A stretch of 64,000 nt of DNA from Alphaproteobacteria bacterium (GTDB taxonomy: Bacteria; Pseudomonadota; Alphaproteobacteria; Caulobacterales; Maricaulaceae), in the NCBI GenBank assembly GCA_030428405.1, contig JAUIEH010000001.1, positions 5,082 through 69,081 on the forward strand, in the 5' to 3' direction. Of this stretch, positions 31,241-58,544 are shown one piece after another. Each line of letters starts with the position of its first letter. Position 1 is the first letter of the stretch. Below the pieces are notes generated by a model. That model was not told where the DNA came from. It saw only the letters and a program-made list of their open reading frames with translations, and searched no databases. Made by a program: the position numbers and the translations under genes.

Positions 31241-31251
31241 GGAGGGTACCC

Positions 31252-34169: not shown

Positions 34170-37100
34170 TCAGGCTCCTAGTGATTGGGCGAGGTGGGTA
34201 TCGTCCGCCGGCGGCGAGGTCGCGCCGGCCAGGCGCTGTCTCCGGGCTTCCCAGACGAAGTATAGAACGGGCAGGACGACGAGCGTGAGCACCGTCGTTG
34301 TGATCATGCCGCCGACCATCGGCAGCGCGATGCGGCGCATGACGTCGGCGCCCAAGCCGTCGGTGAAGAAGATGGGCGCAAGACCCGCGAAGATGGCGAG
34401 CACCGTCATCAGCTTCGGCCGCAGGCGCATGACCGCGCCGCTCATAACGGCCTTGGTCAATGCGCCACGGTCGGCGGGCGAGGTCTCCCGCACCTGCTGG
34501 TCGAGATAGATCAACATGACGACGGCGGTCTCCACCGCAATGCCGCCCAGAGCGATGAAGCCGACTGCGACCGCGACCGACATGTCGTAGCCGGCCAGCC
34601 AGACCGACCAGAGGCCTCCGATCAGCGCGAAAGGCAGCGACGCCATGATGAGCAGCGTCCGATCCAAGCGGCCGAAATGAAGCATGAGGAGGACGAAGAT
34701 GATGGCGATGGCGGCCGGGATCGCGAAGGACAAGCGCTCGCGGGCCTCGATCATCTGTTCGAATTGCCCCGACCAATCGATGGCATAATCGGCCGGCAGC
34801 TCGACCTCTTCGTCCACACGCGCGTCCGCGTCGGCGACATAGCCGGCGATGTCGCGACCGACGACATCGACGAACACCCAGCCGGTCAATCGCGCATTCT
34901 CCGAGCGAATGACGGGCGGGCCGTCGGCAAACTCGATCGAGGCCAACTCGCCCAAGGGCACATGTGCGCCTGCCGGCGTCGGCACGAGGATGTCGTCGAG
35001 CGCGCCGGCCGTCTCGCGGAACGGGCGATCATAGCGGATCATAATGTCGTAGCGCTCGCGCCCTTGCACGCTCTCCGCGACGGGCAAGCCGCCAAGCGCA
35101 GTCTCGACGACCATTTGCACGGTGCCCAGATCCACGCCGTGACGCGCGAGTGCGTTTCGGTCGGGATTAATTTCCAGATAACGCCCGCCGGTCGTGCGAT
35201 CAGCAAAGGCTGACCGCGTGCCGGGAACGCTGCGCACCGCCGCCTCGACTTCCGCTGCGATGCGCTCGATCGTCTCCAGGTTCGGGCCGGTGATTTTGAT
35301 GCCCACGGGCGTGCGGATGCCTGTCGAGATCATGTCCATGCGAATGCGGATCGGGTAGCCCCAGGAATTCACGAGGCCGGGCATGCGCACGCGGGCGTCA
35401 AGTTCTTCGATCAGCGTCTCCGGCGTCACGCCCACGCGCCACTCATCGCGCGGCCGCAAACGAATCCAGGTCTCGATCATGGAAAGCGGCGCGGGATCGG
35501 TCGCGGTGTCGGCGCGGCCGACCTTGCCAAAGGCGAGTTCGACCTCCGGCACGGTCATTATCAAACGGTTGGTCTGAGCGAGGATGTCGCGCGCCCGGCT
35601 CACCGATACGCCGGGAAGGGTCGTCGGCATGTAGAGAAGCTCGCCTTCGTAGAGCGGCGGCATGAACTCGCCGCCCAGACGCGTCAGCGGGATCGCGGCG
35701 CTGGCGAGCAGACCGAGCGTGAAAGCCAGCGTTAGCCAGCGAAACCTCAGTGCTGCGCGCAGGATGGGCCGGTAAACCGCGATCAAGACGGCCATGATCG
35801 GATTGGCCGTTTCGGGCCGCTGGCGTCCTCTCACGAGGAGCATGATCAGCACGGGAACGAGCGTCACCGAAAGCCCGGCGGCGAACGCCATTGCGTAAGT
35901 CTTGGTGTAAGCGAGAGGCGAGAAAAGGCGGTAGCTCTCGCCCGTCAACGCGAAGACCGGCAGGAACGAAGCGGTGATGATCAGTAGCGAGAAGAACAGC
36001 CCCGGACCGACCTCCTGGGCCGCGCGCAGCCGGGCGGCGTTGCCGTCTTGGGGCGAGGCGTCGTCCGGCAGCTCCGCCAAGCGGCGATTGGCGTTCTCGA
36101 CCATCACGATGGAGGCGTCGACCATCGCCCCGATCGCAATGGCGATACCGCCCAGGGACATGATGTTCGCGGTCACGCCCTGCGCCTGCATGACGATGAA
36201 TGCCGCCAGAACACCGAGCGGCAGCGTGATGATCGCGACAAAGGCGGAGCGCACGTGGAGGAGGAATATGAAGACGACGAGCGCGACGGCTATGCCTTCC
36301 TCGAACAGCTTGTGGCGCAAATAATCGACAGCTCCTTCGATCAGCGGCGCACGGTCATAGACGGTGATTATTTCGACGCCGTCCGGCAGTCCGTCTTCGA
36401 GGTCCTGCAAGCGTTCGCGCACGGCCTCGATAACGGTCAGCGCGTTTTCGCCGGACCGCATCACGACGATGCCCGCGACGACCTCGCCTTCGCCGTTGAG
36501 CTCGGTGACGCCGCGACGCAGCCCTGGCCCTTCGACGACGCGGCCGAGATCACCGAGGCGAATGGGGGTGCCCTCGACCGCTGCGACAACGACTTGTTCT
36601 AAATCGTCGCGATCGCTGACATAGCCGTAGGAGCGCACGAAGAACTCGGTTTCGGCCTGTTCGATGATGCGGCCGCTCGTTTCGCGCGAGGCCGCGCGCA
36701 CGGCTTCGATGACGCGGCTGATCGGGATGTCGAAAGCGCGCAAGCGGTTGGGATCGAGCAGAACCTGATATTCGCGAACGTATCCGCCGACGGAGGCCAC
36801 CTCGGCGACGCCGGGCACGGCCGCCAGCTCGAAGCGCAGAAACCAATCCTGCACGGCTCGGAGATCGGCCAGGTCACGCTCGCCGGTCCGATCAATAAGC
36901 GCGTACTGAAAAACCCAGCCAACACCCGTGGCGTCGGGGCCGAGCTGCGGGCGTGCGGAGGACGGCAAATCGCCCTGGATGCGCGAAAGCGCCTCGACGA
37001 CCCGCGATCGCGCCCAATATTGATCCACGCCGTCCTCAAATACTACGTACACGAACGACGTGCCGAACATGGAAAAACCGCGCACGTCTTGGGTTCGCGG

Positions 37101-37403
37101 CAGACCTAGCAAAGTCGAGGCGAGGGGATAGGTGACGAGGTCTTCAACGACCTGTGGACTTTGGCCGGGGAAATCCGTGCGGATGATGACCTGCGTGTCG
37201 GACATGTCGGGAATGGCGTCGAGCGGTATGCGCTCGACCGCGCGCACGCCCGCCACCAGAAGCAGCGCCGCGCCGAAAAGGACGAGAAGCCGATTGCCGA
37301 CCGACCACGCGATCAGCTTGGCGACCCAGCTTTCGGTCGGATCTCTAAGTTCGGTATCAGTGGTCATGAGTAAGCGCAGCCCGCGCCGCGTCTTCATCGT
37401 CAT
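34170..37403 (-). CDS. cusA: CusA-type (monovalent Cu/Ag, HME4) RND efflux pump
   Basis: About 1070 aa with 12 TM helices. The signature GGIAIAIGAMVDASIVMVEN matches the Cu/Ag-type AIGxxVDxxIVxxEN motif. The start is ambiguous: 37403 overlaps cusB by 47 nt, and ATG 37367 (MTTDTELRD) is an alternative. Confidence 0.9.
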   Translation of the reverse strand: MTMKTRRGLRLLMTTDTELRDPTESWVAKLIAWSVGNRLLVLFGAALLLVAGVRAVERIPLDAIPDMSDTQVIIRTDFPGQSPQVVEDLVTYPLASTLLGLPRTQDVRGFSMFGTSFVYVVFEDGVDQYWARSRVVEALSRIQGDLPSSARPQLGPDATGVGWVFQYALIDRTGERDLADLRAVQDWFLRFELAAVPGVAEVASVGGYVREYQVLLDPNRLRAFDIPISRVIEAVRAASRETSGRIIEQAETEFFVRSYGYVSDRDDLEQVVVAAVEGTPIRLGDLGRVVEGPGLRRGVTELNGEGEVVAGIVVMRSGENALTVIEAVRERLQDLEDGLPDGVEIITVYDRAPLIEGAVDYLRHKLFEEGIAVALVVFIFLLHVRSAFVAIITLPLGVLAAFIVMQAQGVTANIMSLGGIAIAIGAMVDASIVMVENANRRLAELPDDASPQDGNAARLRAAQEVGPGLFFSLLIITASFLPVFALTGESYRLFSPLAYTKTYAMAFAAGLSVTLVPVLIMLLVRGRQRPETANPIMAVLIAVYRPILRAALRFRWLTLAFTLGLLASAAIPLTRLGGEFMPPLYEGELLYMPTTLPGVSVSRARDILAQTNRLIMTVPEVELAFGKVGRADTATDPAPLSMIETWIRLRPRDEWRVGVTPETLIEELDARVRMPGLVNSWGYPIRIRMDMISTGIRTPVGIKITGPNLETIERIAAEVEAAVRSVPGTRSAFADRTTGGRYLEINPDRNALARHGVDLGTVQMVVETALGGLPVAESVQGRERYDIMIRYDRPFRETAGALDDILVPTPAGAHVPLGELASIEFADGPPVIRSENARLTGWVFVDVVGRDIAGYVADADARVDEEVELPADYAIDWSGQFEQMIEARERLSFAIPAAIAIIFVLLMLHFGRLDRTLLIMASLPFALIGGLWSVWLAGYDMSVAVAVGFIALGGIAVETAVVMLIYLDQQVRETSPADRGALTKAVMSGAVMRLRPKLMTVLAIFAGLAPIFFTDGLGADVMRRIALPMVGGMITTTVLTLVVLPVLYFVWEARRQRLAGATSPPADDTHLAQSLGA

Positions 37404-39087
37404 CGTTTGAGGCGGCGTCTTCGGTCGCTGCGGCGTCGCTTATTTGAGGCCACTCGATTGGTGCAGCTTCGCCGGCGTTGAAGGGATTGGCCGCGCGTTC
37501 GCCCTCTTGGAGCCAGCGGCGACCGCTGGCCGTGTCCTCGAAAAGGACCACGCCAAGTTCCGCGTAGCGTTGCGGACGGCCTTCGAGCAGCCATGGCTCC
37601 AGAGCGGCGATGAGACTGGCGAGCGCATCGTGAAGCTCGGTTTCCGTGCGCGCTGCGCCTGCAGCCGCAAGTGGCGGTCTAGTCGCCTCCATGACGCGGG
37701 CCAGGCGCGTGTCGGGATAACGGCCCTCGAGGTAAAGCGCGGAATCGACGGCGACCTGCAGAAGATCGGATTGGACGTCGAATCCATCGACGAGCGCTTC
37801 ATGGACATAGAGGGCGGCGTCGATGACATGATCGATCGTCGACAGCTCAACATCCGACAGCGATATGAGCGAAAGGGGGAGGTTCTGACGTTCAAGCCGG
37901 CGGAACGTCTCTCTGAGCGAACTCTCGGAGTCCAAGAGGAACTGGCCGGAAACGACAATCATTTCTCCGGCTTCCAATCCCGACAAGATCTCGGTGCGGC
38001 CGCCGCTTTCCAACCCGGTCTCGACGACACGCGGCTGAAAGCGTCCGCCGCCGAGCGAGACCACGACGCGGGCGCCGGAACCGTCTCGCAAAACGGCGTC
38101 GCTCGACACGGACAGACGACGCTCGCGACCGGCCTGAAAGACGATGTCGGCATAGGCGCCGGGCCGGATTTCGCCGGCGGTATTGTCGATGACGAGGCGC
38201 ACGTCCGCTGTCCGCGTGCGGGCGTCCAGCGTGGGGTAGATGTAGTCTAGTGTCGTTTCGACGTCAGGCATGTCCGCGCTCGGAAAGCCGACCCTCGCAG
38301 GCGCGCCGGGCTCGAGAAACTGCAAATCCTGCTCGGGCACGGAGGCGATCAGCCAGAGCTCTGAATAATCCTGAAGCGTGAGTATGCCGGCGCCGGACGC
38401 GACATAGCTCCCCTCCACGACGTCGATTTCGGCGACCAGCCCCGAGGCCTGTGCGAATATGGGCACGAGCTCCATCGCTTCGCCGCTGTCTCGCAGGCGT
38501 TCGATCGTGGCCGTCTGCATGCCCAGCGCTTCGAGCCGGCGCGCCGCGGCGCGCGCGCGGCTGGCGCTTGATCCGCGCGCGGCGAGGTAGTCTTGTTGGG
38601 CTGCGACGAGTTCAGGGCTGTAGAGCTCGAACAAAAGGTCCCCGGCTTCGACCGGATCGCCGACGGCGCGCACGGCGAGGCGTTCGATCCAGCCCTCGAC
38701 GCGGCTCGTGATCGCCGCCTGGGTTCGAGGGTTGGCGGAAACGGCCGCGAAGCTGCGCACCTCGCCGCCGAACAGTGCGATCTCGACTGGCTCGATCTGA
38801 ACGCCGATCGTCTGAATGATCTCGGACGCCACGGTGACGACGGCCCGCGGCGGAGATGCGCCATCATCGGAAGGAGCGAGCGCGTCGGCTTCCTCGACCG
38901 GGACGAGGTCCATGCCGCAGATCGGACAGGTCCCGTCCTGATCCGCAATGTAGTGGGGATGCATCGGGCAGGTGTAGAGCTGCCCGGTCGCCTCGGCCTC
39001 CTGTGCAACAGCCGGCGCCGGCGCCAGCACGGTTGGCGCAGCGAGGAAGGCGACGCAAACAAAGGCGGCGAGGATTGAACGTCTCAT
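37357..39087 (-). CDS. cusB: RND periplasmic adaptor (CusB-like) with an N-terminal CxxC metal-binding domain and a long C-terminal extension
   Basis: Signal peptide, then YTCPMHPHYIADQDGTCPICGMDL, then the membrane-fusion core, then an extra C-terminal region of about 170 aa with an acidic tail. ATGA overlap with the outer-membrane factor gene. Confidence 0.88.
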   Translation of the reverse strand: MRRSILAAFVCVAFLAAPTVLAPAPAVAQEAEATGQLYTCPMHPHYIADQDGTCPICGMDLVPVEEADALAPSDDGASPPRAVVTVASEIIQTIGVQIEPVEIALFGGEVRSFAAVSANPRTQAAITSRVEGWIERLAVRAVGDPVEAGDLLFELYSPELVAAQQDYLAARGSSASRARAAARRLEALGMQTATIERLRDSGEAMELVPIFAQASGLVAEIDVVEGSYVASGAGILTLQDYSELWLIASVPEQDLQFLEPGAPARVGFPSADMPDVETTLDYIYPTLDARTRTADVRLVIDNTAGEIRPGAYADIVFQAGRERRLSVSSDAVLRDGSGARVVVSLGGGRFQPRVVETGLESGGRTEILSGLEAGEMIVVSGQFLLDSESSLRETFRRLERQNLPLSLISLSDVELSTIDHVIDAALYVHEALVDGFDVQSDLLQVAVDSALYLEGRYPDTRLARVMEATRPPLAAAGAARTETELHDALASLIAALEPWLLEGRPQRYAELGVVLFEDTASGRRWLQEGERAANPFNAGEAAPIEWPQISDAAATEDAASNDDDEDAARAALTHDH

Positions 39088-40298
39088 TCGGTTCCCGCGA
39101 TGAGGCTGCTCATGCGCGCTGCGGCGCGATCGGCGGCGAGGCGCTGCAAGTGGCGACTGATGCGCACGTCGATCTGATTGATGCGCGCATCCAAGACCGG
39201 CGAAATTGGCCCGGCGGCGCTTTCATATTGGCGCTGCGCGGCGGCGGCGACGCCGTCGAGCGCACGATCGCGGCGCTCCAGCGAGGAGGCGGCGCGAACA
39301 GCGGCGGCGTGCTCGGCGGCCGCGGCGCGAAAGGCGTCGCCCGCGGTTCGAGAGGCGTCAGCGATGCGCAACCGGGCCGCGCTGGCGCCGTCGCGCGCAG
39401 CCTCCAGGCGGGGCGTCTGGTTCCAGCGCGACCAAAGCGGAATCGAAAGGCCCAGCTGGACGGACACCCAATCATCGCCGGCGAAGTTGGCGCCGTCTTC
39501 TCGCTGGAGATAGCTCACGCTGACCCCGTAGGAGATATCGTAGTCGCGCTCGCGCACGGCCACGCCCGCATCCGCCGCGCGCGCAAGCGCCTGAGCGACG
39601 CGAACAGAGTGGAAGCCCGCCTGAGCAGGCTCGGACGGCGGCTCGATCGCCTCGATCATAGGCGCGGTCCCTTCGAGCGGACCGACCAGACGATGGATGC
39701 GGCTCATCGCTTGTGCGCGCATGCTTTCGGCCTCGGCGAGGCGCTCATCGGCCTCTGCGCGATCGGCGTCGACATCTGATAGATCAGCGAAGACGGGGCG
39801 GCCTGCATCAACCTCGCCTTCGAGCGTTGCCTCGAGCTCGTCGAGGATTTCCAACTGGGCCGCGATGAGCGCAATGATCTCGTCAGCGGTACGTAATTCG
39901 GCCAATGAGACGAGCAATTCGCTCGCGAGGAGGTCGTAGTGAGCCGTACGTCGCGCGTGGGCGATTTCGGCGCCGGCGCGCTCGCGATCGGAGCGTGCGC
40001 CGCGCAGGCCGCGGCTGGGGATTTCCTGGCTGAACGTCACGGATCGATTGCTCGGCAGGAACTCGTCGAACTGCAAGGGATCGGTCACGGGCACGTTGTT
40101 GACGCCGACGCTGACGCGAGGATTGGGCAGTCCCATCTGACCCGCTGCATTATTGTGTGCGGCGGATGCATCCGATTCATAGGCCGATAGGGCGGGATGC
40201 TCGCGCAGATCGTCGAGCAGCGCCTCAACGGCACCCGTTTCGGGGGAGACGAAACTCAGGTTTGCAGCGAGCAAGATTGCGGCGAATGACATGATCAT
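39084..40298 (-). CDS. cusC: TolC-family outer-membrane efflux protein (CusC-like)
   Basis: Repeated coiled-coil / beta-barrel halves typical of outer-membrane factors. I prefer ATG 40298 (MIMSFAAILLAAN, a signal peptide) because the promoter-like motif at 40326-40352 lies inside the longer track ORF. Confidence 0.8.
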   Translation of the reverse strand: MIMSFAAILLAANLSFVSPETGAVEALLDDLREHPALSAYESDASAAHNNAAGQMGLPNPRVSVGVNNVPVTDPLQFDEFLPSNRSVTFSQEIPSRGLRGARSDRERAGAEIAHARRTAHYDLLASELLVSLAELRTADEIIALIAAQLEILDELEATLEGEVDAGRPVFADLSDVDADRAEADERLAEAESMRAQAMSRIHRLVGPLEGTAPMIEAIEPPSEPAQAGFHSVRVAQALARAADAGVAVRERDYDISYGVSVSYLQREDGANFAGDDWVSVQLGLSIPLWSRWNQTPRLEAARDGASAARLRIADASRTAGDAFRAAAAEHAAAVRAASSLERRDRALDGVAAAAQRQYESAAGPISPVLDARINQIDVRISRHLQRLAADRAAARMSSLIAGTE

Positions 40299-40325: not shown

Positions 40326-40352
40326 ACTACGCGGTTCGATGACCGATCCCTC
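40326..40352 (-). promoter_or_regulatory. Island promoter motif, site 1 (cusCBAF-like operon)
   Basis: Minus strand reads GAGGGA-N14-GCGTAGT. It ends 27 nt upstream of ATG 40298. Confidence 0.55.
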
Positions 40353-40514
40353 GCTCTCGCCGCGGTAACATTTCGTTAATGACTGGCCGTTCAGGCGACC
40401 ACACACGTTTGCGCCAAATCGCGTGATGCGCGGCGTGTCTCACGCACTCTCGAATGGCGGCGTCGCGCTCGAACTCCTTTAGCTCGAAGTTTTGCAGTCA
40501 AGCGCACCGACGGG

Positions 40515-40541
40515 GAGGGGTCGCGCGCGTCCACGCGTATC
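40515..40541 (+). promoter_or_regulatory. Island promoter motif, site 2 (acyltransferase gene)
   Basis: GAGGGG-N14-GCGTATC. It ends 27 nt upstream of ATG 40569. Confidence 0.55.
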
Positions 40542-40568
40542 CGCATAGGGCGAATCATCGGCGGGCGC

Positions 40569-41678
40569 ATGCGGAAATTCACCACGATCGGCGCGGCGTA
40601 TGTCGGCCGCGAAAATAGGCTGACTCCCATTCGTTGGGTTTTGGCGAGCGCGGTGATGGTCGAGCACGCTGTCGTCGTCACGATTGGACCGATCTTGCCT
40701 TCGCCCGTTGCCGTGAATGGCTGGTCGATCGGCTATGCAGCGGTCAATGCGTTCTTCGTGCTCAGCGGCTTCTTGATCGCCGACAGCCTCGAGCGGCGCG
40801 CTGATCCGTTCGTATACGCCGCGGCGCGGGCGCTGCGCATCCTTCCGGCTTTGGTTTTTCTATCCCTCGGAGCGGTCCTCGTGGTCGGCCCCGTGGCCAG
40901 CGATTTGACGCTGAGCGCCTATTGGAGCAGCGCCCAGACTTGGCTCTATCCAGTCAACGTCCTGGCCTTCATGGACACCTCGCAGGGACCTGCGGGCATC
41001 TTCACTGACAATCCGTGGCCCGGCGAGTTTTCGGCGACGCTCTGGACGCTGCGATACGAAGTGCTCGCTTATGTCGCGGCGGGCGTATTGTTCTTTTTCC
41101 GCCTGTTCTGGGGCTGGCGTTCTCACCTCTTTCTATTCGTCGCAGCTACGCTCGCCTACTTGGCTTTGCGTTACGGATGGACCGACGCGCCGCCCATGCT
41201 GATGAGCGGCGCGCGTTTGGCGAGCGCGTTCAGTCTGGGCATGTTCGTACACGCCTCTCGTCACCGGCTGCCGCTGGCGCCGATCATCGCCGTCTTGGCG
41301 ACGCCTGCATGGCTGCTTCTCGGCAGCCAGCCGGTCGCGGAGGTCGCAATGAACCTCGCGATCGCCTCAACGCTGTTCTGGATCGGCTTCGCGAGATTGG
41401 GCGGCGCCCCGACCGGAGCGAGGATTCCCGATTGGTCGTACGGCATCTATATTTGGCACTACCCAATGATGCAGCTGGTCGTCTTCTTCGATCGCTCCGC
41501 CACACCGCTGGAAGTAGCCGTCTTCACAGTGCCCGCGACTTTAGCGATATCCGGTCTTTCTTGGAGCTATGTCGAAAAGCCGAGCCTTGGGCTCAAGACC
41601 GTCACCGGCGAGCGCTTGCGCTCCACGTGGCTCGCACTATTCAGCAAACGGGCCGAGCGACGCACGCGGCTGCGCTAA
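40569..41678 (+). CDS. Acyltransferase-3 family integral membrane protein (OafA/YrhL-like)
   Basis: RLTPIRWVLASAVMVEHAV...VNAFFVLSGFLIADSL and about 10 TM helices are typical of PF01757-type acyltransferases. Confidence 0.8.
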   Translation: MRKFTTIGAAYVGRENRLTPIRWVLASAVMVEHAVVVTIGPILPSPVAVNGWSIGYAAVNAFFVLSGFLIADSLERRADPFVYAAARALRILPALVFLSLGAVLVVGPVASDLTLSAYWSSAQTWLYPVNVLAFMDTSQGPAGIFTDNPWPGEFSATLWTLRYEVLAYVAAGVLFFFRLFWGWRSHLFLFVAATLAYLALRYGWTDAPPMLMSGARLASAFSLGMFVHASRHRLPLAPIIAVLATPAWLLLGSQPVAEVAMNLAIASTLFWIGFARLGGAPTGARIPDWSYGIYIWHYPMMQLVVFFDRSATPLEVAVFTVPATLAISGLSWSYVEKPSLGLKTVTGERLRSTWLALFSKRAERRTRLR

Positions 41679-42394
41679 CGCGGTAGACTCGCCGCGTTTA
41701 AGAGGTTGCGCCGCGCGCGATAGAGCGAGATCACGCCGAGAGGCGTTGTCTGACGGTGAGTCTCCGCAACGTCGACGAAGCCGGCCTCGCGTAGGAGGGG
41801 TTTAAGACCGACGCGGACATGGTCTTGCGTGTTGGAGAAGCCGTCGAGAAGCTGGACCAGGAAGAAGCCGAGCCGCTGCCAGGGAAAGCGCGCGCGGCCC
41901 CAATCGGCGATGTGGAGTTCGCCGTCCGGCTTCAGCCATTCTTTGACCCGCGCGAGCGTGCGCGCCTTCGCGTCTGGTTCGAGGTGGTGAAAGACGAGGC
42001 TCGACGCCACGCGGTTGAAAGAGCCCGGCTCAAAAGACGCGTCATCGAACAGGGACTGCTCGAATGATATCTCGGCGCCTGTCCGGTGCGCCTTTTCGCG
42101 CGCGATGCGCAATGCGGTCGCATCGGCGTCGAGACCGACGACCTCTACGTTGGGGTTTGCTTTCTTGAGTTGAAGCGCGATGTCGCCGGTGCCGCATCCT
42201 AGATCGAGAACGCGATGACCGGCCTGCGCGCCGATCTGGGCGATCAGCTTCGGCCGCCAGACCGCGTCCAGGGTCGTGACGCGGACGATCACATCATAGG
42301 CGCCGGTCAGCCACTTGAAGCGCAGCGGCGCGATGTAGGACGCGTTAGCGTTTTGTGACATTCCACGAGCCTTTCGCGTAGCCGCCGTCTGCAT
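41675..42394 (-). CDS. Class I SAM-dependent methyltransferase
   Basis: Motif I is RVLDLGCGTGDIALQL; the post-I motif is VVGLDAD. An alternative start lies at 42361 (MSQNANASY). Confidence 0.85.
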   Translation of the reverse strand: MQTAATRKARGMSQNANASYIAPLRFKWLTGAYDVIVRVTTLDAVWRPKLIAQIGAQAGHRVLDLGCGTGDIALQLKKANPNVEVVGLDADATALRIAREKAHRTGAEISFEQSLFDDASFEPGSFNRVASSLVFHHLEPDAKARTLARVKEWLKPDGELHIADWGRARFPWQRLGFFLVQLLDGFSNTQDHVRVGLKPLLREAGFVDVAETHRQTTPLGVISLYRARRNLLNAASLPR

Positions 42395-42400
42395 ATCCGC

Positions 42401-42664
42401 TCAACCGTGGCGCTCCCAGGGAGGCGGAAATCTGTGTTTTATGAAAACGAGCGCCGCGAAGAGCAGCACTTCTTCGACAAGAAAGAAGAGCAGGCCCAAG
42501 CCGAATGCAAAGGCGACAATTCCCTGGACGACGGACGCCCGGAAGAAATCGTAGAGCTGATCGTGGCAAGTCAGACACAACCAAACACGCGCGAAGCGAA
42601 TGGTGGTCGACATGCGGCAGAACGGACACCGCTTCGGTCGGGACGCCGTCGCTTGGTCGGACAT
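42401..42664 (-). CDS. 87-aa protein: N-terminal zinc-ribbon-like CxxC...CxxC followed by two TM helices
   Basis: CPFCRMSTTIRFARVWLCLTC, then hydrophobic helices. It is packed tightly between copA (stop 42701) and the methyltransferase gene. Confidence 0.5.
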   Translation of the reverse strand: MSDQATASRPKRCPFCRMSTTIRFARVWLCLTCHDQLYDFFRASVVQGIVAFAFGLGLLFFLVEEVLLFAALVFIKHRFPPPWERHG

Positions 42665-42700
42665 CGCTTTGCTTTGCTCATTGGCGGGTTCGACGCGGCA

Positions 42701-44908
<2,208 letters not shown>

Positions 44909-44930
44909 GACGCGCTCCCGGCTCACTCGC

Positions 44931-45194
44931 CTAACGACGTGCGAGGCGGTTGAAGACGACCGCGAGAATCGCCGCGAACAGCCATCCAAACGCGATGCTG
45001 CCGACGATGCCCTCGATCCAGCCGAGCGCTGAGGTGACCGGCCGGGCTGTGAACACCTCGACCCATGCATGCGCGACGGGAAAATTCGGAATGAGGAGCT
45101 CGAAGCCGGCGCAGAGAACGAAGGTGACCGCCAGGGCGGCGGACAAGGCCCAGCCAGCGGGCCATAGCGGAATACGAGAAACCGTTTCGGACAT
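44931..45194 (-). CDS. Small membrane protein of 87 aa with 2-3 TM helices, first gene of the copA operon (possibly DUF5676-like)
   Basis: AAGGAGG lies 6 nt upstream of ATG 45194. The protein is hydrophobic. Position is between the CsoR boxes and copA. Confidence 0.6.
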
Positions 45195-45216
45195 CGTTTC
45201 CTCCTTGTAGGGCAAT

Positions 45217-45257
45217 ATACCCCTGTGGGGTATTACATTTATACCCAATGGGGGTAT
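45217..45257. promoter_or_regulatory. Two CsoR-type operators in the divergent csoR / copA-operon promoter region
   Basis: ATACCCC-TGT-GGGGTAT (45217-45233, perfect 7-bp arms) and ATACCC-AATGG-GGGTAT (45241-45257). Known CsoR operators are GC-rich TACCC...GGGTA pseudo-palindromes. Confidence 0.7.
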
Positions 45258-45267
45258 AGTTCAAGGC

Positions 45268-45546
45268 ATGAAGCCTGAAACCCGAAAAGCCGCCCGTGCG
45301 CGCCTCGCCCGCATCGAGGGCCAAGTCCGCGGTCTGATCCGCATGATCGACGATGATCGCTACTGCATCGACGTGATCACCCAGACCCAGGCCGTGCGTG
45401 CAGCGCTCGCGCGCGTCGAATCGCTGGTCTTGAAGGATCATGTCGCCAACTGCGTGGCGGACGCCGTCGCCTCGAACGACGAGGACGAGCGGCGCACGAA
45501 GATCGACGAGCTGATCACGGTCATGGACCAAGCCGTAAGGCGCTGA
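45268..45546 (+). CDS. csoR: CsoR/RcnR-family metal-sensing repressor
   Basis: RLARIEGQVRGLIRMIDDDRYCIDVITQ...LKDHVANC shows the x-C-H-C ligand pattern of Cu(I)-sensing CsoR. Confidence 0.88.
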   Translation: MKPETRKAARARLARIEGQVRGLIRMIDDDRYCIDVITQTQAVRAALARVESLVLKDHVANCVADAVASNDEDERRTKIDELITVMDQAVRR

Positions 45547-45640
45547 GCGGCGTCGGTGCACGGCTTCAATTCTCGTGTCTTCCAGCCCATGCTTTGAATA
45601 CGCGCGGCGGCGCGGGGGCCCTCGCGCATGGTTTCCATAA

Positions 45641-45668
45641 GAGGGGAGGCGGCGATCTCCTGCGTAGT
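45641..45668 (+). promoter_or_regulatory. Island promoter motif, site 3 (anti-sigma/sensor/ECF operon)
   Basis: GAGGGG-N15-GCGTAGT. It ends 38 nt upstream of ATG 45707. Confidence 0.55.
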
Positions 45669-45706
45669 CTCATGTGAGCGATGGCTGGAGGTCTCGGAAT
45701 AGAACG

Positions 45707-46015
45707 ATGACGAAGAACCTGGACGAATTGGCGCGCGCGCTCAGAGACGCGCCTCCTGATCGCGACTTGAGCGCCATTGAGCCGCTGGTGTGGCGCCGCC
45801 TGGATGATGAAAGATCGTGGGCGTTTTTCGGCTCGGCGATCTCATCCGCAATGTCGGTTCGAGCCTTCCAGTCGGCGCTAAGCGCAATCGTATTGTTTTC
45901 GGGCGTGCTCGCAGGCGCAGCCCTGCAAAGCAGCGCAGTGTCCGAGCCGGACGCTTTCGCGGTCTTCCCCATTGCATCGCCGCTGGCGCCGTCGACCTTG
46001 CTCGAACGATCATGA
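45707..46015 (+). CDS. Small single-TM anti-sigma factor (CnrY-like by position and size)
   Basis: 102 aa with one TM helix (ALSAIVLFSGVLAGAAL). ATGA overlap with the next gene. It is the first gene of a Y-X-H type operon. Confidence 0.55.
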   Translation: MTKNLDELARALRDAPPDRDLSAIEPLVWRRLDDERSWAFFGSAISSAMSVRAFQSALSAIVLFSGVLAGAALQSSAVSEPDAFAVFPIASPLAPSTLLERS

Positions 46016-46491
46016 CCGCCGCTGAGATCGCGTCGCGCACAATCCGCACGCGACTGCTTCGCAACATCGTCATCATGGCGCTTGTCGCATTCATCGCCGG
46101 AGCCGCGGGTGCGGCTCTCGGCGCGACCTTGTTTGCTGCGCCCGGCGATCACGCCTCTTCGGGCATGCACGCGCTTGTTCATGAAGGGCTTGATCTGTCT
46201 GCGGAACAAGAACGCGCGCTTGACGCCATCGAGGAGCGCTTCGCCGCGCGCCGGCGCGAGGTTGAATCCGAGCTTACAGCCGCCAATCGAGCGCTCGCGG
46301 ACGTTATCGCCGAAAACCCGGACTACGCGCCCGAAGTCGGCGACGCGGTGGGGCGCGTCCATCAGGTCATGGGCGAACTGCAGGTCGCTACCGTGCTTCA
46401 CGTCTATGAGATGCGCGCCATCCTGACTGAAGAGCAGGCGGCGCTGTTCGATCAACGCGTCAGCAGGGCCCTGATGGGCGCCGCTGAATGA
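46012..46491 (+). CDS. Periplasmic heavy-metal sensor (CnrX / Spy-CpxP-like, LTxxQ motifs)
   Basis: TM anchor, then HASSGMHALVHEGLDLSAEQERAL...LTEEQAALF. Position is between the anti-sigma and ECF sigma genes. Confidence 0.65.
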   Translation: MTAAEIASRTIRTRLLRNIVIMALVAFIAGAAGAALGATLFAAPGDHASSGMHALVHEGLDLSAEQERALDAIEERFAARRREVESELTAANRALADVIAENPDYAPEVGDAVGRVHQVMGELQVATVLHVYEMRAILTEEQAALFDQRVSRALMGAAE

Positions 46492-46492
46492 C

Positions 46493-47062
46493 GTGACGAA
46501 CGAAGGCGAAAGCGACGCCGATTTAGCAGTGCGTGCGCGCCAAGGAGATGAGCGCGCTTTCACGTCCTTGATGCGCCGGCACAAGGACGCCGTTTATCAG
46601 GTTGCGCGGCGGAATCTCGCCGACTCCGACGAAGCGCTGGACGTCGTTCAAGAAGTCTTTGTCGCGGCTTGGCGCAATATCAAGAAATTCGATCCAGAAC
46701 GGCCGATGGCGGCTTGGCTCTTTCGCATCGCGGTCAATGCTTGTCGCGACCGTCACCGGCGTCGCGCTGTCAGAGCGTTCTTCTTTCGCGCCACGCCGCT
46801 CGATGAGCCCGGCGCGCGAAATGTCGCTGACGTGAACGAGCGCACTGAGGATCGCGTCATGGCGCGTGACGAACTCAGGCGTCTTGCGCACGAGATCGAG
46901 CGTTTACCACAAGGCGCGCGCGAGGCGTTCGTGCTGAACGTGATCGAAGGTCTATCCCAGGGCGAAGCCGCGGACGCTCTCGGCGTCACTGTCAAAGCAG
47001 TGGAGACGCGCGTGGCTCGCGCACGGCGATTGCTGGCCGAGCGCCTCGATATCGACGAATAG
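46493..47062 (+). CDS. ECF-type RNA polymerase sigma-70 factor (CnrH-like position)
   Basis: Region 2 is FTSLMRRHKDAVYQVARRNL...DVVQEVFVAAWRNI. Region 4 is LPQGAREAFVLNVIEGLSQGEAADALGVTVKAVETRVARARRLL. Start codon is GTG. Confidence 0.88.
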   Translation: MTNEGESDADLAVRARQGDERAFTSLMRRHKDAVYQVARRNLADSDEALDVVQEVFVAAWRNIKKFDPERPMAAWLFRIAVNACRDRHRRRAVRAFFFRATPLDEPGARNVADVNERTEDRVMARDELRRLAHEIERLPQGAREAFVLNVIEGLSQGEAADALGVTVKAVETRVARARRLLAERLDIDE

Positions 47063-47077
47063 GCTGCCGCTTCCGAT

Positions 47078-48019
47078 CTAGCTCGCGAAATCGAGTTCCG
47101 GCGCCGCATCGGAGCGACAGGCCCGCTCCACCTGCAAGGTCGAAAACACGAAACCATAGCGCAGGCGTAGCAAATCATGCGCGCTCCCCAGGACCGCTTC
47201 ATGCTCTGCGTTCTCGGTTATGCGAATGTGGGCGGAAAAGAGATTGCGTCCGCTTGTCAGCGCCCAGGCGTGAACGTGATGGATGTCCTCGACGCCGTCC
47301 AGCGAAAGAAGCGCCTCACGCACGGCAACCACGTCGACGCCCGTAGGCACGGTCTCCATGAGGATGCGCAGCGCGTCTCGGCAGATCGTCCACGACGCCC
47401 AAAACAACACGAACCCGAATCCGATGCCGAGAATCGGATCGATCGGTGTCCAGCCGGTCAGCCAGATCACGGCGGCGGCGATGATGATGATTAGGCTGCC
47501 GACAAATGTCTGAATGACGTGCCAGAATGCGCCGCGCATATTGAGGTTCTCGCGCTGGCTGGCGAACAGCAGTCGGATCGAAATCAGCTCGGTGACGAGA
47601 CCGCCGAGGGCGGTCAACACCATGGGCAGAGGCGGCAGTTCGACTGGATGGCGCAACCGCATTGCGCCCATGACGATGACGACGACGGCCATCGCGAATA
47701 GGAACAACCCGTTGATGAGGGCGCCGATGATTTCGGCGCGGTAGGAGCCGAACGTGCGATAGCGATCGGAAGGTCGCTCGGCGAGTTTCCCCGCGACAAG
47801 CGCGATCAGCACGCCGCCGACCGCGGAGAACGTGTGAAAGGCGTCAGATATGACCGCGATCGAGCCGATCCAAACGCCAACGATGAGCTCGATCAAGAAA
47901 TAGACGCCCGTCAGCCAGGACGTCCAAATGAGCGCCCTGCGATTGGCGCGCAGCATGGCGGACATGTCGTGCCCGCCGTGGCTCGTCCGGCCGCCGGTCT
48001 GTTCGTGCGCGCCGCTCAC
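47078..48019 (-). CDS. czcD: Cation diffusion facilitator transporter (CzcD/ZitB-like)
   Basis: Six TM helices with SDAFHTFS and a C-terminal cytoplasmic domain (VEDIHHVHAWALTSG). The GTG start overlaps the upstream stop (GTGA). Confidence 0.88.
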   Translation of the reverse strand: MSGAHEQTGGRTSHGGHDMSAMLRANRRALIWTSWLTGVYFLIELIVGVWIGSIAVISDAFHTFSAVGGVLIALVAGKLAERPSDRYRTFGSYRAEIIGALINGLFLFAMAVVVIVMGAMRLRHPVELPPLPMVLTALGGLVTELISIRLLFASQRENLNMRGAFWHVIQTFVGSLIIIIAAAVIWLTGWTPIDPILGIGFGFVLFWASWTICRDALRILMETVPTGVDVVAVREALLSLDGVEDIHHVHAWALTSGRNLFSAHIRITENAEHEAVLGSAHDLLRLRYGFVFSTLQVERACRSDAAPELDFAS

Positions 48020-48477
48020 GACGTCTGGAGATGGCAGATCTTCCAGCCTTCGGCGGTCTCTTCAAACACGGCTGTTCCGCGGCCCTCACGTTCATAGGGC
48101 TCGCCATCCAGAGTGCCGGTGATCGCGAATTCGAAAAGCGCGTAGCCGAGATCAGTTCCCTCGTAAGGACGCACGTCGGAGATCTGATAGTCCTCGATGT
48201 GAAAGCGCTCGCTTTCGAACTCGGGCGTGAGGTGGTCCTCACGGTATTCCGTCCACGACCAATTCGCACCGCGGCCTTCTATGATCGTGAAACGCGTGTG
48301 CCCGAGCGTTTCGGCTTCCATGGCGTCGAGGTCTTCGTTGCGGATGGCCTCCGCGTAGCGCTCCAGCACGGCCGCGTAAGGGTGGGCCGGCTCGGGCTCT
48401 TGCGCGGTCGCGCAGCCTGACGCGAGTACGGCTGCGAACAAAGGCGCCGCTAGAACGCGCTGTAACGTTGCAATCAT
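48016..48477 (-). CDS. NTF2-like (SnoaL/DUF4440-type) lipoprotein
   Basis: Lipobox LASGCA. LERYAEAIRNEDLDAMEA...GRGTAVFEETAEGWKICHLQTS is the typical NTF2-fold pattern. GGGGAGGAA lies upstream of ATG 48477. Confidence 0.6.
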   Translation of the reverse strand: MIATLQRVLAAPLFAAVLASGCATAQEPEPAHPYAAVLERYAEAIRNEDLDAMEAETLGHTRFTIIEGRGANWSWTEYREDHLTPEFESERFHIEDYQISDVRPYEGTDLGYALFEFAITGTLDGEPYEREGRGTAVFEETAEGWKICHLQTS

Positions 48478-48516
48478 CGTATTCCTCCCCTTGCGAGCGC
48501 CGATTGGCCTGTAGTG

Positions 48517-48543
48517 GTTACGCAGGGCGGCGCACGAGCCCTC
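48517..48543 (-). promoter_or_regulatory. Island promoter motif, site 4 (NTF2-like lipoprotein / czcD operon)
   Basis: Minus strand reads GAGGGC-N14-GCGTAAC. It ends 39 nt upstream of ATG 48477. Confidence 0.5.
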
Positions 48544-48560
48544 GCGCTGAACGCGCCTTG

Positions 48561-48587
48561 AAGGGGAGGCCGCTTGAGCTGCGTAGT
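48561..48587 (+). promoter_or_regulatory. Island promoter motif, site 5 (copCD)
   Basis: AAGGGG-N14-GCGTAGT. It ends 36 nt upstream of ATG 48624. The longer string GGGGAGGC...CTGCGTAGTC is shared with site 3. Confidence 0.55.
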
Positions 48588-48623
48588 CGCTATGCGGTCT
48601 AGTGGCCTTCGGAGGATACTCGC

Positions 48624-49007
48624 ATGAAGATGCTTCGCGCTTTGGTGATCTCCGCGCTTGCCGCTCCCGGCCTTTTCTCCGGCGGGCCGGCTTTGGCGCA
48701 TGCGCGCCTTGAGGATGCAACCATCGCTGACGGAGCCGAAATTGCCGAGCTTCCGGCCGAATGCGTCTTTCATTTCTCTACGCCAGTGGCGCTTGCGCGT
48801 GTGACGCTCGAAAACGCGAGTGGTGAGAACATACCCTTGGATTTCACGCCGGCGCGCCAGGAAGCCGCCTCCCACGCCGTCAGCCTGCCAGCCATTGCGC
48901 CCGGCTCCTACACGCTGATCCTGCGGGCGATGTCTGACGACGGCCACGTCATGGCGAATTCCATCTCTTTCACACTGATAGAGCAGGACGAGGCCGAGAG
49001 CCGCTGA
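48624..49007 (+). CDS. copC: CopC-domain periplasmic copper-binding protein
   Basis: Signal peptide ending ALAHA, so the mature N-terminus is HARLEDATIADG, the characteristic CopC N-terminal His. Confidence 0.85.
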   Translation: MKMLRALVISALAAPGLFSGGPALAHARLEDATIADGAEIAELPAECVFHFSTPVALARVTLENASGENIPLDFTPARQEAASHAVSLPAIAPGSYTLILRAMSDDGHVMANSISFTLIEQDEAESR

Positions 49008-49027
49008 ACGCTTGACGGACCGCGCCT

Positions 49028-49867
49028 GTGATCGGCGTTTTCGCAAAGCTCGCCATTTACGCCGCTGTGCTTGGCGCTGCGGGCTTTTCGTTCGCAGCCT
49101 TGGGCGTGACGACGGCTCCGCAGAGCGTTCGCCGATATCTGGGCGCTGCATCGCTTCTATCGATCGTCGCCGCTGCGACCGCCGGCCTTCGCATTCTGCT
49201 CGACGCCGTCCGGCTCGCGGGCGACTGGGCGGCGGTGGGTGAGCCGCCTTATCTTAGTTGGGCGTTCGATGCGCAATCCGGCTTCATCGCGGCTTTCGCG
49301 CCGGGCGCGATCATTCTTTTCACCGCCGGTCTTGCTCGTTGGCGCGTGGCGGCCGCCATCGGCGGCGCTGTGATGCTCGCGAGTTTCGCTGCGACCGGGC
49401 ATGCAAGCGCAGACGGCGCGCCCTGGCCGGCGCGCGCTGCACTGGTCGTCCATTTGTGGGGCGTCGCGTTTTGGGTGGCCGCGCCGATTGTGCTTTGGCC
49501 CGCTGCCTGGACTGATCACGCCGAGCTGCTCGACAGAATGAAGAGGTTCAGCCGCATCGCGACCTTGATCGTTCCGGCTTCGCTCGCCGCAGGCGCGGTT
49601 TTGGTCGTCACTCTTCTGCCGCAACTGACGAACCTCGTGACGACGACCTATGGCAGGCTGATTGCGCTGAAAGTCGTGCTCGCGGCGTCCGCGTTCGGGC
49701 TCGGCGCTATCAACAAGGTTTGGGTGACGCAGAGACTTGAGATAAATCCCGTTCACGGACGAAGGCTGCTCAAACTCACTTTGTCGGCGGACGCCATCCT
49801 GTTCGCCGTCGCGCTCACCGCCGTGGCGGCGGCGACGACACTGACGGGCCCGACAGAGGAACTCTAG
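49028..49867 (+). CDS. copD: CopD-family inner-membrane copper resistance protein
   Basis: Eight TM helices. It lies immediately downstream of copC. Start codon is GTG. Confidence 0.8.
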   Translation: MIGVFAKLAIYAAVLGAAGFSFAALGVTTAPQSVRRYLGAASLLSIVAAATAGLRILLDAVRLAGDWAAVGEPPYLSWAFDAQSGFIAAFAPGAIILFTAGLARWRVAAAIGGAVMLASFAATGHASADGAPWPARAALVVHLWGVAFWVAAPIVLWPAAWTDHAELLDRMKRFSRIATLIVPASLAAGAVLVVTLLPQLTNLVTTTYGRLIALKVVLAASAFGLGAINKVWVTQRLEINPVHGRRLLKLTLSADAILFAVALTAVAAATTLTGPTEEL

Positions 49868-49900
49868 CCGGGCCCGTCGCGCGCCTAAGAGTGGCGGTTC

Positions 49901-50281
49901 TTAGTCTTCGTCGCTGTGTCCCTGCATCTCCATCATCATTTCGTGCTGGGACATCATCTGCATCATCATTTGATGCATGTTCGACATGTGCTCGTGCATC
50001 CGCTCCATCGAGGCGCCGTCATCATCGGCCATCATCCCATGTCCGCCCATCATGCCCTCGGAGGCGTGCATCTGCTCGCGCATCAAGGCCATGTGCTCGT
50101 GCATGAGCGCGCGGCGTTCCGCGGCGTCATCCGCCGATGCGAACGCTTCACGCATCTCCTCCATGCGCTCGAACCGGTCACCGCCGCCGTGCTCATGGGC
50201 TGGGTCCTGGGCGAAGGCTGTCGTCGTGGCGCACGCCGAAAGGCCGAAGGCCGCCGCGACGATGATTGGCTTCAACAACAT
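49901..50281 (-). CDS. Met/His-rich periplasmic lipoprotein (probable Cu(I)/Ag(I) binder)
   Basis: Signal/lipobox FGLSAC, then MHEHMALMREQMHASEGMMGGHGMMADDDGASMERMHEHMSNMHQMMMQMMSQHEMMMEMQGH. Confidence 0.75.
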   Translation of the reverse strand: MLLKPIIVAAAFGLSACATTTAFAQDPAHEHGGGDRFERMEEMREAFASADDAAERRALMHEHMALMREQMHASEGMMGGHGMMADDDGASMERMHEHMSNMHQMMMQMMSQHEMMMEMQGHSDED

Positions 50282-50368
50282 CTGTTTGCTCCCTCGTGAT
50301 GTGCGAGCTTGCGTCACAGGGCGCGGATGAGATCCTCGCCAATCTGCGTGACCACCAGCTCTTGTTGG

Positions 50369-50395
50369 GATACGCAGCCGCGCGACCGCCCCCTC
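50369..50395 (-). promoter_or_regulatory. Island promoter motif, site 6 (Met/His-rich protein gene)
   Basis: Minus strand reads GAGGGG-N14-GCGTATC. It ends 87 nt upstream of ATG 50281, or 51 nt from the alternative start at 50317. Confidence 0.45.
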
Positions 50396-50514
50396 GGAAA
50401 AAGCGGGCGAAGGAGAGGAGATTGGGTGACGAATGCTCCACGGTTCAGCGTCGATCCGTCCTCACGCCGATACAGAGATTGCAGTGCGGTCAGAGTACGG
50501 ACGAATGCGTCTGA

Positions 50515-51261
50515 TTAACGGTGTGCCTTCGCGAAGCTCGCCAAACGCAGCACGACCAGCCCGACGCCGGCCAAGGCGAACAGAACCGCCAGCGACGCCG
50601 TCATCTTGATCCACCACGAATTGAAGTTCTCGCGGCTCGACCAATCCATAATGTGCAGGCCCCACATAAAATCGAACGTGCGCCACAAACCCGTTCGAAC
50701 CGCGCGCACGTCGCCGGTCGAAGCGTCGACATAGAAGCTGGCCGCGTCCGGGCGATCGAAGTCGACGCGCCATGCGGGCCCGGGGCGTCCATATTCGCGC
50801 GGCGGGTCGTCGAAGAACGTCGCCGTCCCTATCGCGCCGTCGCCGCGATAGTTCGATTGCGCGAGGCGACGCGCCCAGTCTTCGGACAATGGCGTGATGA
50901 GTTCGCCCGACGTCGCGTCGATCATGACGGTCGCATCGTCTGCGCTGACCCGCCATACGGCCGTCTCGTCCAGCATCATCGCCGACGCAGTGCTCGCAGA
51001 CACGCCGGAGGTCTCAATCGCTTCCGCTAACTCGACATGGTCGGGCGCCCACGCGAGCGTTGGCGGCTCGTGCTCGGTACGGAGATGCTCGCCACGAACC
51101 TGTTCGATCGGGAACCACGTCATGAACAATCCCGTCGCCAGCCAGATGACGACCTGCGCGCCGATTGCGAGGCCGAGCCAAAGGTGAAGCTGACGAAGGC
51201 GACGGTTGAATAGGGCTCGGGTCACTCGGCGGCTCTCTGCGAAAGATCTGTCCGTGCTCAT
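50515..51261 (-). CDS. PepSY-domain / PepSY-associated TM protein
   Basis: FNRRLRQLHLWLGLAIGAQVVIWLATGLFMTW...FMWGLHIMDW is the typical PepSY_TM pattern. Confidence 0.75.
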   Translation of the reverse strand: MSTDRSFAESRRVTRALFNRRLRQLHLWLGLAIGAQVVIWLATGLFMTWFPIEQVRGEHLRTEHEPPTLAWAPDHVELAEAIETSGVSASTASAMMLDETAVWRVSADDATVMIDATSGELITPLSEDWARRLAQSNYRGDGAIGTATFFDDPPREYGRPGPAWRVDFDRPDAASFYVDASTGDVRAVRTGLWRTFDFMWGLHIMDWSSRENFNSWWIKMTASLAVLFALAGVGLVVLRLASFAKAHR

Positions 51262-51294
51262 CGGACGGCGTGCGCATATCATACGAACATTGGA

Positions 51295-51321
51295 ATTACG
51301 CGCGAGGTCTCCTAGCCCCTC
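51295..51321 (-). promoter_or_regulatory. Island promoter motif, site 7 (PepSY gene)
   Basis: Minus strand reads GAGGGG-N14-GCGTAAT. It ends 33 nt upstream of ATG 51261. Confidence 0.5.
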
Positions 51322-51603: not shown

Positions 51604-56126
<4,523 letters not shown>

Positions 56127-56132
56127 TTTGGA

Positions 56133-57461: not shown

Positions 57462-57521
57462 GCTTACCTCCTGCGAAGACGACAAGACACAAAGCGCGCT
57501 TAGGAGCGCGGAATGCTGTCG

Positions 57522-57863
57522 TCAGGCGCGTGGAGGTCGGAAGACGCCGCCGAGGAGGCGTCCAATCGCATTGTCGTCGATGACCGGCGCGTTTTGGCGG
57601 GGGGCGGTTTTGGCGCTCAGGACCGGCGGTGTCGTGCCGCCGAGGACATGGAAGTGGCAGCCGCCGCAGCCATGCGCGACATGCAAAGCGTGATCGGCGT
57701 CGATCGGGCCGTCATCAACGGCGACGATTTGTCCGTGCTCACACGGATTGGTGTGCGCGCCATTGGCCGCATGCGCTGGCGCAAACACGCTAGCGAGCGC
57801 CCAAAAGGCGATCAGCAGGGCATGAACTACCGCGCGGCGTGGATTATTCAGCGAGCGCATCAC
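57522..57863 (-). CDS. Secreted 113-aa His/Cys-containing protein upstream of czcC (CzcI-like position; identity uncertain)
   Basis: Signal peptide ending PAHA, then NPCEHGQ...ADHALHVAHGCGGCHFH. Confidence 0.45.
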   Translation of the reverse strand: MMRSLNNPRRAVVHALLIAFWALASVFAPAHAANGAHTNPCEHGQIVAVDDGPIDADHALHVAHGCGGCHFHVLGGTTPPVLSAKTAPRQNAPVIDDNAIGRLLGGVFRPPRA

Positions 57864-58512: not shown

Positions 58513-58544
58513 AGCGCGAGCGGTCCAAGGGCTGATCGAAAAGC

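Follow-up and report, generated by a model that had tools for sequence, protein, structure and literature searches.

A metal-resistance island of an alphaproteobacterium of the family Maricaulaceae carries eight copies of a two-box motif, GAGGG(G) followed by (G)CGTA, which are very probably promoters read by RNA polymerase with the island's own CnrH-like sigma factor, which is of the ECF291 type within the extracytoplasmic function (ECF) class. The island lies in the stretch of DNA analysed here (positions 5,082 to 69,081 of contig JAUIEH010000001.1, assembly GCA_030428405.1; 64 kb, 64% GC, about 80% coding by a rough gene call), which is called the window below and to whose first nucleotide all positions refer.

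Six exact copies of GAGGG-N15-GCGTA are present in the window, while 100 dinucleotide-preserving shuffles contained 0.13 copies on average and one copy at most; the initial annotation, made from the sequence alone, had estimated by hand that far fewer than one exact match to GAGGGG-N14-GCGTA should arise in the window by chance. When A or G was accepted as the first base and one extra base was allowed in the spacer, the pattern gave eight sites, all between 40328 and 51321 and all intergenic (Table 1). Seven of them had been listed in the initial annotation, each with the correct coordinates, sequence and distance to the start codon; the eighth, 45599-45623 (-), had been missed. In an unbiased test, every dyad of two 5-mers with a gap of 10-21 was counted on both strands of the window, and GAGGG-N15-GCGTA ranked first among the 12.6 million possible dyads (six copies against an expectation of 0.081; Poisson p = 3.7e-10, which Bonferroni correction raises to about 0.005).

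A weight matrix trained solely on 22 sites from other loci, with the sites of the window excluded, gave seven matches of 17-22 bits in the window, all of them in intergenic regions of the island. Coding sequence, in which a similar density of the motif had been named beforehand as an argument against its significance, contained no match of 17 bits or more. Twenty shuffled sequences yielded a single match of at least 17 bits in total, and about 0.45 matches per shuffle reached 14 bits. Elsewhere in the window the matrix found matches at the noise level only, at 17691(-), inside a gene, and at 26800(+). In 239 kb of DNA flanking CnrH-like sigma genes the exact pattern was counted 35 times, but only once in 688 kb (67% GC) flanking unrelated ECF sigma genes, where it is thus about 100-fold rarer.

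As to the position of the sites, a start codon on the same strand is located 27-87 nt downstream of seven of the eight, in agreement with the earlier statement that the motif is confined to intergenic regions at promoter-like distances. If the unpaired sites at 50371(-) and 51297(-) were read in the reverse direction, they would face 3' ends of genes or antisense strands. The sites 45599(-) and 45641(+) form a back-to-back pair with 17 nt separating the predicted -35 boxes, and the same geometry is seen in the pair 48519(-)/48561(+). None of the eight sites coincides with a called sigma-70-like promoter.

Mapped cnr promoters and the ECF291 consensus

For pMOL28, a plasmid of Cupriavidus metallidurans CH34, the promoter boxes in front of cnrY and cnrC were taken from the nucleotide sequence itself. 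The boxes of cnrYp are AAGGGGGAG..GCCGTATA (full region upstream of cnrY: ttcAAGGGGGAGtccttcgcgcaGCCGTATAag), and those of cnrCp are GAGGGGAAG..TCCGTATA (full region upstream of cnrC: accGAGGGGAAGcatcgacctggtCCGTATAga). Both promoters contain the two boxes of the window with one base more in the spacer, as in site 4 of the window. The transcription starts determined by primer extension precede cnrY by 24 nt and cnrC by 25 nt and, when placed on the pMOL28 sequence, both fall exactly 9 nt past the A of CGTA; therefore GAGGG is the -35 box and CGTA is the -10 box. The same position of the cnrY start was obtained in a 2026 study, according to which the -10 box CCGTATA had been verified earlier by primer extension and run-off transcription (PMC13492112). 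The ECF-type geometry proposed in the initial annotation is that of two mapped promoters. In the window, GAGGG(G) would likewise act as the -35 element and (G)CGTA as the -10 element, and transcription would begin some 9 nt past the A of the CGTA box.

Table 4 of PMC13492112 quotes xATACGC (-35) and xxCCCTCA (-10) from ECF Hub as the consensus of ECF291, and in the same work no ECF291 promoter was identifiable upstream of cnrY. Read on the opposite strand, the quoted words ATACGC and CCCTCA become exactly GCGTAT and TGAGGG (compare the boxes before the mapped starts of cnrYp and cnrCp, at 8216-8243 and 9590-9617 of L001). In view of the mapped starts of pMOL28 and of the orientation of every site towards its gene, the consensus appears to be given on the wrong strand. 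A plausible cause is that most genes at the cnrY position have a divergent partner promoter just upstream, so that the reverse complement is present on the strand of the gene as well. Such an inversion would explain the failure to find a CnrH promoter at cnrY (PMC13492112). In the comparison with the motif of the ECF group, recommended in the initial annotation, the sites match the pMOL28 promoters, and the quoted consensus is their reverse complement.

The sigma operon and its predicted regulon

The sigma factor, the only ECF sigma encoded in the window, consists of the Pfam domains Sigma70_r2 and r4_2 and is 45% identical to the product of pMOL28 cnrH (tblastn). Among solved structures, CnrH (4cxf) is ranked first (Table 1), followed by SigW at 1e-21, which upholds its earlier description as CnrH-like. 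The public annotation of this gene (P0001, 163 aa) begins at 46571, 26 codons after the GTG at 46493. The 189-aa form seems more likely, as all relatives have 189 aa and the alignment with CnrH begins at residue 5.

The sigma gene is preceded by what the initial annotation had described as a single anti-sigma gene. In fact, there are two genes, an open reading frame (ORF) at the CnrY position and the gene of a membrane-anchored periplasmic metal sensor similar to CnrX and NccX, although a copy of the motif does precede the operon as stated there. The matches of the sensor to the NccX/CnrX structures range from 2.8e-23 (4clv, NccX, the best) to 1e-20. The metal ligands of CnrX given in the literature are His42, His46, Glu63 and His119. 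The sensor columns H53, H57, E74 and H130, aligned with these residues, and M134, aligned with Met123 of CnrX, are invariant in 15 homologues including CnrX. Met123 is a further ligand in the structures of CnrX. In addition, an H-x-x-M (His117 and Met120 of the sensor of the window) is invariant in 13 of 13 alphaproteobacterial sensors, whereas CnrX and the homologue from Ralstonia have E-x-x-A; we treat this difference as a lead, not as evidence, for an altered specificity of the sensor. As for the ORF at the CnrY position, its location, its size, the single hydrophobic segment and the ATGA overlap with the sensor gene allow us to propose that it encodes the anti-sigma factor. The defining feature of ECF291 is that its genes are ordered Y-X-H, the anti-sigma factor being encoded at -2.

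By homology with CnrYXH, binding of a periplasmic metal ion to the sensor would make the small membrane protein let go of the sigma factor, which would then switch on the operon that encodes it together with seven further units. These would comprise the cusCBAF-type efflux operon, the acyltransferase gene, the operon of a lipoprotein and a cation diffusion facilitator (CDF) exporter, copCD, the genes of a periplasmic Met/His-rich protein and of a PepSY protein, and probably the operon of DUF5676, Cu-type ATPase and methyltransferase genes. Autoregulation, assumed already in the initial annotation, agrees with the position of site 4, 40 nt ahead of the first ORF of the Y-X-H-type operon, and with its conservation, in all the close relatives examined and in most relatives overall. 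The list of regulon members proposed there is likewise supported and can now be refined to eight promoters, the ATPase operon being a probable addition.

Table 1. Predicted promoters, the genes that they face and the regulatory genes of the island (E-values from comparison with solved structures; scores from the weight matrix)
Feature	Position (strand)	Sequence or size	Score, bits	Predicted start	Genes faced or other properties
CnrH-like ECF sigma factor	46493-47062 (+)	189 aa, GTG start			PDB 4cxf, E=6e-40, residues 5-188
CnrX/NccX-like membrane-anchored periplasmic metal sensor	46012-46491 (+)	159 aa			Pfam Metal_resist
CnrY-position ORF	45707-46015 (+)	102 aa			One hydrophobic segment; stop overlaps sensor start (ATGA)
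Site 1	40328-40352 (-)	GAGGGA-N14-GCGTA	19.8	~40319	cusC-like 39084-40298, cusB-like 37357-39087, cusA-like 34170-37403, cusF-like 33719-34168, all (-)
Site 2	40515-40539 (+)	GAGGGG-N14-GCGTA	19.2	~40548	Acyl_transf_3 gene 40569-41678
Site 3	45599-45623 (-)	GAGGGC-N14-GCGTA	22.0 (top score in the window)	~45590	Antisense to csoR
csoR	45268-45546 (+)
Genes beyond csoR	(-)				DUF5676 44931-45194, Cu-type P1B ATPase 42701-44908, 87-aa Cys-rich ORF 42401-42664, methyltransferase 41675-42394
Site 4 (autoregulatory)	45641-45666 (+)	GAGGGGAGG-N..-TGCGTA, spacer longer by one base	17.4	~45675	CnrY-position ORF, sensor and sigma genes
Site 5	48519-48543 (-)	GAGGGC-N14-GCGTA	21.7	~48510	SnoaL_3 lipoprotein gene 48016-48477, CDF transporter gene 47078-48019
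Site 6	48561-48585 (+)	AAGGGGAGG-N..-GCGTA	14.3	~48594	copC 48624-49007, copD 49028-49867
Site 7	50371-50395 (-)	GAGGGG-N14-GCGTA	21.4	~50362	Secreted Met/His-rich protein gene 49901-50281
Site 8	51297-51321 (-)	GAGGGG-N14-GCGTA	19.1	~51288	PepSY_TM gene 50515-51261 (or 51282)

The products of the operon behind site 1 match the Pfam families OEP, HlyD_D23/HlyD_D4/HMBD, ACR_tran and CusF_Ec. An acyltransferase gene, similar in kind to that behind site 2, is also contained in a motif-preceded operon of the Asticcacaulis plasmid pASTEX02. The Met/His-rich secreted protein (about 126-135 aa, with MHEHM and MMxQMM repeats) has homologues encoded at 13072-13479 of the locus L044 and at 7238-7621 of the locus L045, and it matches no Pfam or NCBIfam family. 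The motif precedes its gene in all three loci (the window, L044 and L045), and the protein is a candidate periplasmic copper binder.

The motif was further traced in 12 other loci that encode a related sigma factor (40-72% identity). In the four with the closest sigma factors, from metagenomes and a metagenome-assembled genome (MAG) of Maricaulaceae, the sigma is 61-72% identical to that of the window (68% in the case of the MAG), and in the eight plasmid or MAG loci, which belong to Novosphingobium, Sphingomonas, Sphingobium, Polymorphobacter, Caulobacter, Asticcacaulis, a Caulobacterales MAG and Ralstonia, it is 40-49% identical. A scan of a genome collection with the sigma protein gave nothing above 49% identity, and megablast searches of plasmids, made with the island and with the transfer region, retrieved only conserved pieces of ATPase, TraG and TrbE genes (71-76%). 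The motif is present and correctly oriented in 12 of the 12 loci, mostly 26-90 nt from the start codon, with the sites of ATPase genes farther away; the pooled consensus is c-GAGGG-N14-(t/c)GCGTA-(t/a). It precedes the gene at the cnrY position in most of them (L044, L045, L048, L050, L051, L053, L056 and L057), the variants GCGTT and GCGGG being found before this gene in Rhodothalassium and in Caulobacter FWC26, respectively. Furthermore, it precedes copC in six loci (L044, L048, L050, L051, L053 and L057), a multicopper oxidase gene in seven and P-type ATPase genes in three (L052, L053 and L056, at 85-311 nt). Other motif-preceded genes of the relatives encode cytochrome c, the Met-rich protein, DUF305 and DUF411 proteins, a four-helix copper-binding protein and a methyltransferase. 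Back-to-back pairs are common, and the gap between the partners ranges from 11 to 73 nt among the loci; therefore the paired sites represent two independent promoters.

The two bidirectional cassettes of the window, 45590-45680 and 48510-48600, are alike beyond the core boxes and share a GCGGCGC spacer, CCCTCGCGC, AGGGGAGGC and TGCGTAGTC. This likeness suggests that a bidirectional promoter cassette was duplicated.

Site 3 and the alternative explanations

Several points weigh against the assignment of the eight sites to the sigma factor of the island. Mapping of transcription starts in C. metallidurans gave cnrYp as shared with RpoD and did not detect cnrCp (PMC13492112), and therefore sequence by itself is no guarantee of activity. 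The ORF at the CnrY position has no detectable similarity to CnrY (BLASTP E=27, probability of 0.3% in profile comparison) and no match to CnrY in PDB, Pfam or NCBIfam. The score of site 6 (AAGGG, before copC) is within the noise band and is not significant when taken alone; we accept this site because of its position and because of the homologous sites upstream of copC in other loci. Site 3 points antisense into the 3' end of csoR and has no gene directly downstream. Finally, a paralogous sigma factor encoded by the host could read the same boxes.

Of these, site 3 deserves a separate consideration. The P-type ATPase encoded beyond csoR has the signatures CPC, YN and MxxSS, by which the standard P1B classification recognises Cu(I)/Ag(I) pumps, and csoR itself encodes a CsoR-type repressor whose ligands follow the C-H-C pattern and which lacks an N-terminal His. 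No terminator-like site was found on the minus strand between 45590 and 45195. An equivalent of site 3 is present behind csoR in the locus L050, at 2301-2326 (-), and in L044 and L045 motif-driven units likewise meet csoR head-on, the ATPase operon following behind it. We infer that site 3 provides a second, sigma-dependent input for the ATPase operon together with an antisense RNA to csoR; the regulon probably extends to this operon. An ATG is located exactly 9 nt after the A of CGTA of site 3 both in the window and in L050, but a small protein or a leaderless gene at the predicted start was rejected as unlikely, since the peptides encoded in the two loci bear no relation to each other. Two tandem palindromes resembling CsoR operators, ATACCCCTGTGGGGTAT and ATACCCAATGGGGGTAT, are located at 45218-45257, in the region that separates csoR from the divergent DUF5676-ATPase operon, and these overlap the sole sigma-70-like promoter called in the island (45232-45260).

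Site 3 alone might instead be a non-functional relic of the duplicated bidirectional cassette, of which only the plus half is used at this place. The likeness of the two cassettes would fit such an origin, as would the lack of a gene directly downstream and of a conserved ORF at the predicted start. However, this site has the best score in the window, it is retained behind csoR in L050, whose sigma is just 68% identical, and motif-driven units directed head-on towards the ATPase (L044, L045) or motif-preceded ATPase genes (L052, L053, L056) recur among the relatives. On balance, we consider a relic unlikely, though of all the alternatives it is the one to be taken most seriously.

As for the whole set of sites, they could be genuine ECF-type promoters that are read mainly by a host sigma factor encoded elsewhere, the sigma of the island being of minor importance. 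In S. cloacae, two cnrYXH-like modules with the same motif do occur on one plasmid, and the starts assigned with the help of the quoted consensus were regulated in a strain devoid of CnrH (PMC13492112), though that consensus appears to be strand-inverted. Against this explanation, the 64-kb window encodes a single ECF sigma, the motif accompanies CnrH-like sigma genes, being some 100-fold less frequent near other ECF genes, and the autoregulatory site is conserved, which makes the prevalence of a host sigma improbable. It is still less probable that the motif is an operator of a CsoR- or MerR-type regulator of the island and not a promoter. The island encodes both a CsoR-type repressor and a MerR-type regulator, and the sites of two pairs are inverted relative to each other, but dyad symmetry is lacking between the boxes, GAGGG not being complementary to GCGTA, unpaired single sites occur, a separate pair of CsoR-type palindromes is present at 45218-45257, and in pMOL28 these boxes have been mapped as elements of promoters. 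The reading of the paired sites as a palindromic operator was rejected in view of the variable spacing of the partners. Chance or a compositional artefact of GC-rich DNA, in which G-rich or CG-rich words are common, can practically be dismissed, being refuted by the shuffle, dyad, weight-matrix and flank statistics and by the intergenic position of all eight sites in a predominantly coding window.

Relation to known systems and genomic setting

By its sigma factor, sensor, promoter boxes and autoregulation, the module of the window is to be assigned to the known CnrYXH/ECF291 kind. It resembles CnrYXH of pMOL28 in the order of genes (small membrane protein, periplasmic sensor, sigma), in the sigma factor, about 45% identical, in the five ligand positions of the sensor, in the boxes [A/G]AGGGG and CGTA(T) and in the combination of an autoregulatory promoter with a promoter of an efflux operon of the resistance-nodulation-division (RND) type. 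The differences are as follows. The spacer in the window is one base shorter in seven of the eight sites; the small membrane protein has no detectable sequence similarity to CnrY, and the sensor has the additional, clade-specific H-x-x-M. The cargo is of the copper type (cusCBAF, copCD, the CPC/YN/MxxSS ATPase, CsoR and the Met-rich protein) in place of cnrCBAT, and the host element is an alphaproteobacterial conjugative one. New in comparison with cnr are the unusually large regulon, with eight promoters versus two, the copper-type cargo, the mobile-element context and the antisense arrangement at csoR. The nickel-cobalt-cadmium determinant NccYXH follows the same modular logic, and NccX is the best structural match of the sensor; unlike the ncc locus, the window has no ncc-type efflux genes, the other differences being the same as for Cnr.

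The closest parallels are the cnrYXH-like modules located beside copCD and copAB on plasmids of Sphingomonadales and Caulobacterales. They share with the window the motif, its N15 spacing and the H-x-x-M of the sensor, and have divergent promoter pairs between copCD and the gene at the cnrY position as well as sites before multicopper oxidase and ATPase genes. Their sigma factors, 40-47% identical to that of the window, are annotated merely as "RNA polymerase sigma factor", next to a "periplasmic heavy metal sensor", and our search of the available literature found no experimental or descriptive paper on such alphaproteobacterial modules. In a review of copper signalling in marine bacteria, CorE is the only copper-related ECF sigma factor named. 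CorE of Myxococcus xanthus, which responds to copper by inducing a multicopper oxidase as well as a copper ATPase, senses the metal itself with a C-terminal extension rich in Cys and works without an anti-sigma factor. In contrast, the sigma of the window (189 aa) has a single Cys and ends right after region 4, and genes of a sensor and a small membrane protein are located upstream of it; in the absence of the Cys-rich extension, its identity as a CorE-type factor is ruled out.

The intact CnrX ligand set would suggest nickel or cobalt as the inducer, whereas the cargo in the window and in all alphaproteobacterial relatives is of the copper type. One may tentatively suppose, although we hold it to be somewhat less probable than its opposite, that the alphaproteobacterial CnrYXH was repurposed as a periplasmic sensor of copper, or copper and silver, which commands a mobile copper-resistance regulon, with the H-x-x-M contributing to this change and with one promoter deliberately directed antisense through csoR. 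If this were true, the antisense promoter would couple signalling in the periplasm to the Cu(I) circuit of the cytoplasm, either by lowering the output of CsoR, by driving the ATPase operon from upstream, or by both.

The assignment of the sites to the CnrH-like sigma offers a testable map of a self-contained, horizontally mobile metal-resistance island with eight promoters and about twenty genes, and it ties to metal stress the acyltransferase, the SnoaL lipoprotein, the PepSY protein and the Met-rich protein. The conservation of CnrH-type promoters extends from Burkholderiales through Sphingomonadales and Caulobacterales to Maricaulaceae, and in the alphaproteobacterial branch these promoters stand before copper genes.

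The metal island begins at 33.7 kb and adjoins conjugative-transfer genes. The left half of the window encodes a DUF3363 relaxase, the coupling protein TraG and secretion proteins of the TrbB/E/L/G/I types (14776-33395, including the HipA toxin gene 32079-33395), and the window as a whole looks like an integrative conjugative element or a plasmid. A second RND operon (OEP, membrane fusion protein and RND genes), a second CDF gene and a MerR-type regulator gene occupy 51604-59091, a block that is motif-free and in which the weight matrix found no site. It seems that the island has at least three regulatory layers, ECF, CsoR and MerR. A C-5 cytosine methylase gene is present at 8508-9737. One more repeated element of the window is the palindromic dyad CGATG-N13-CATCG, which occurs five times (0.44 expected), at 32300, 34847, 37608, 42103 and 49267, each time in coding sequence.

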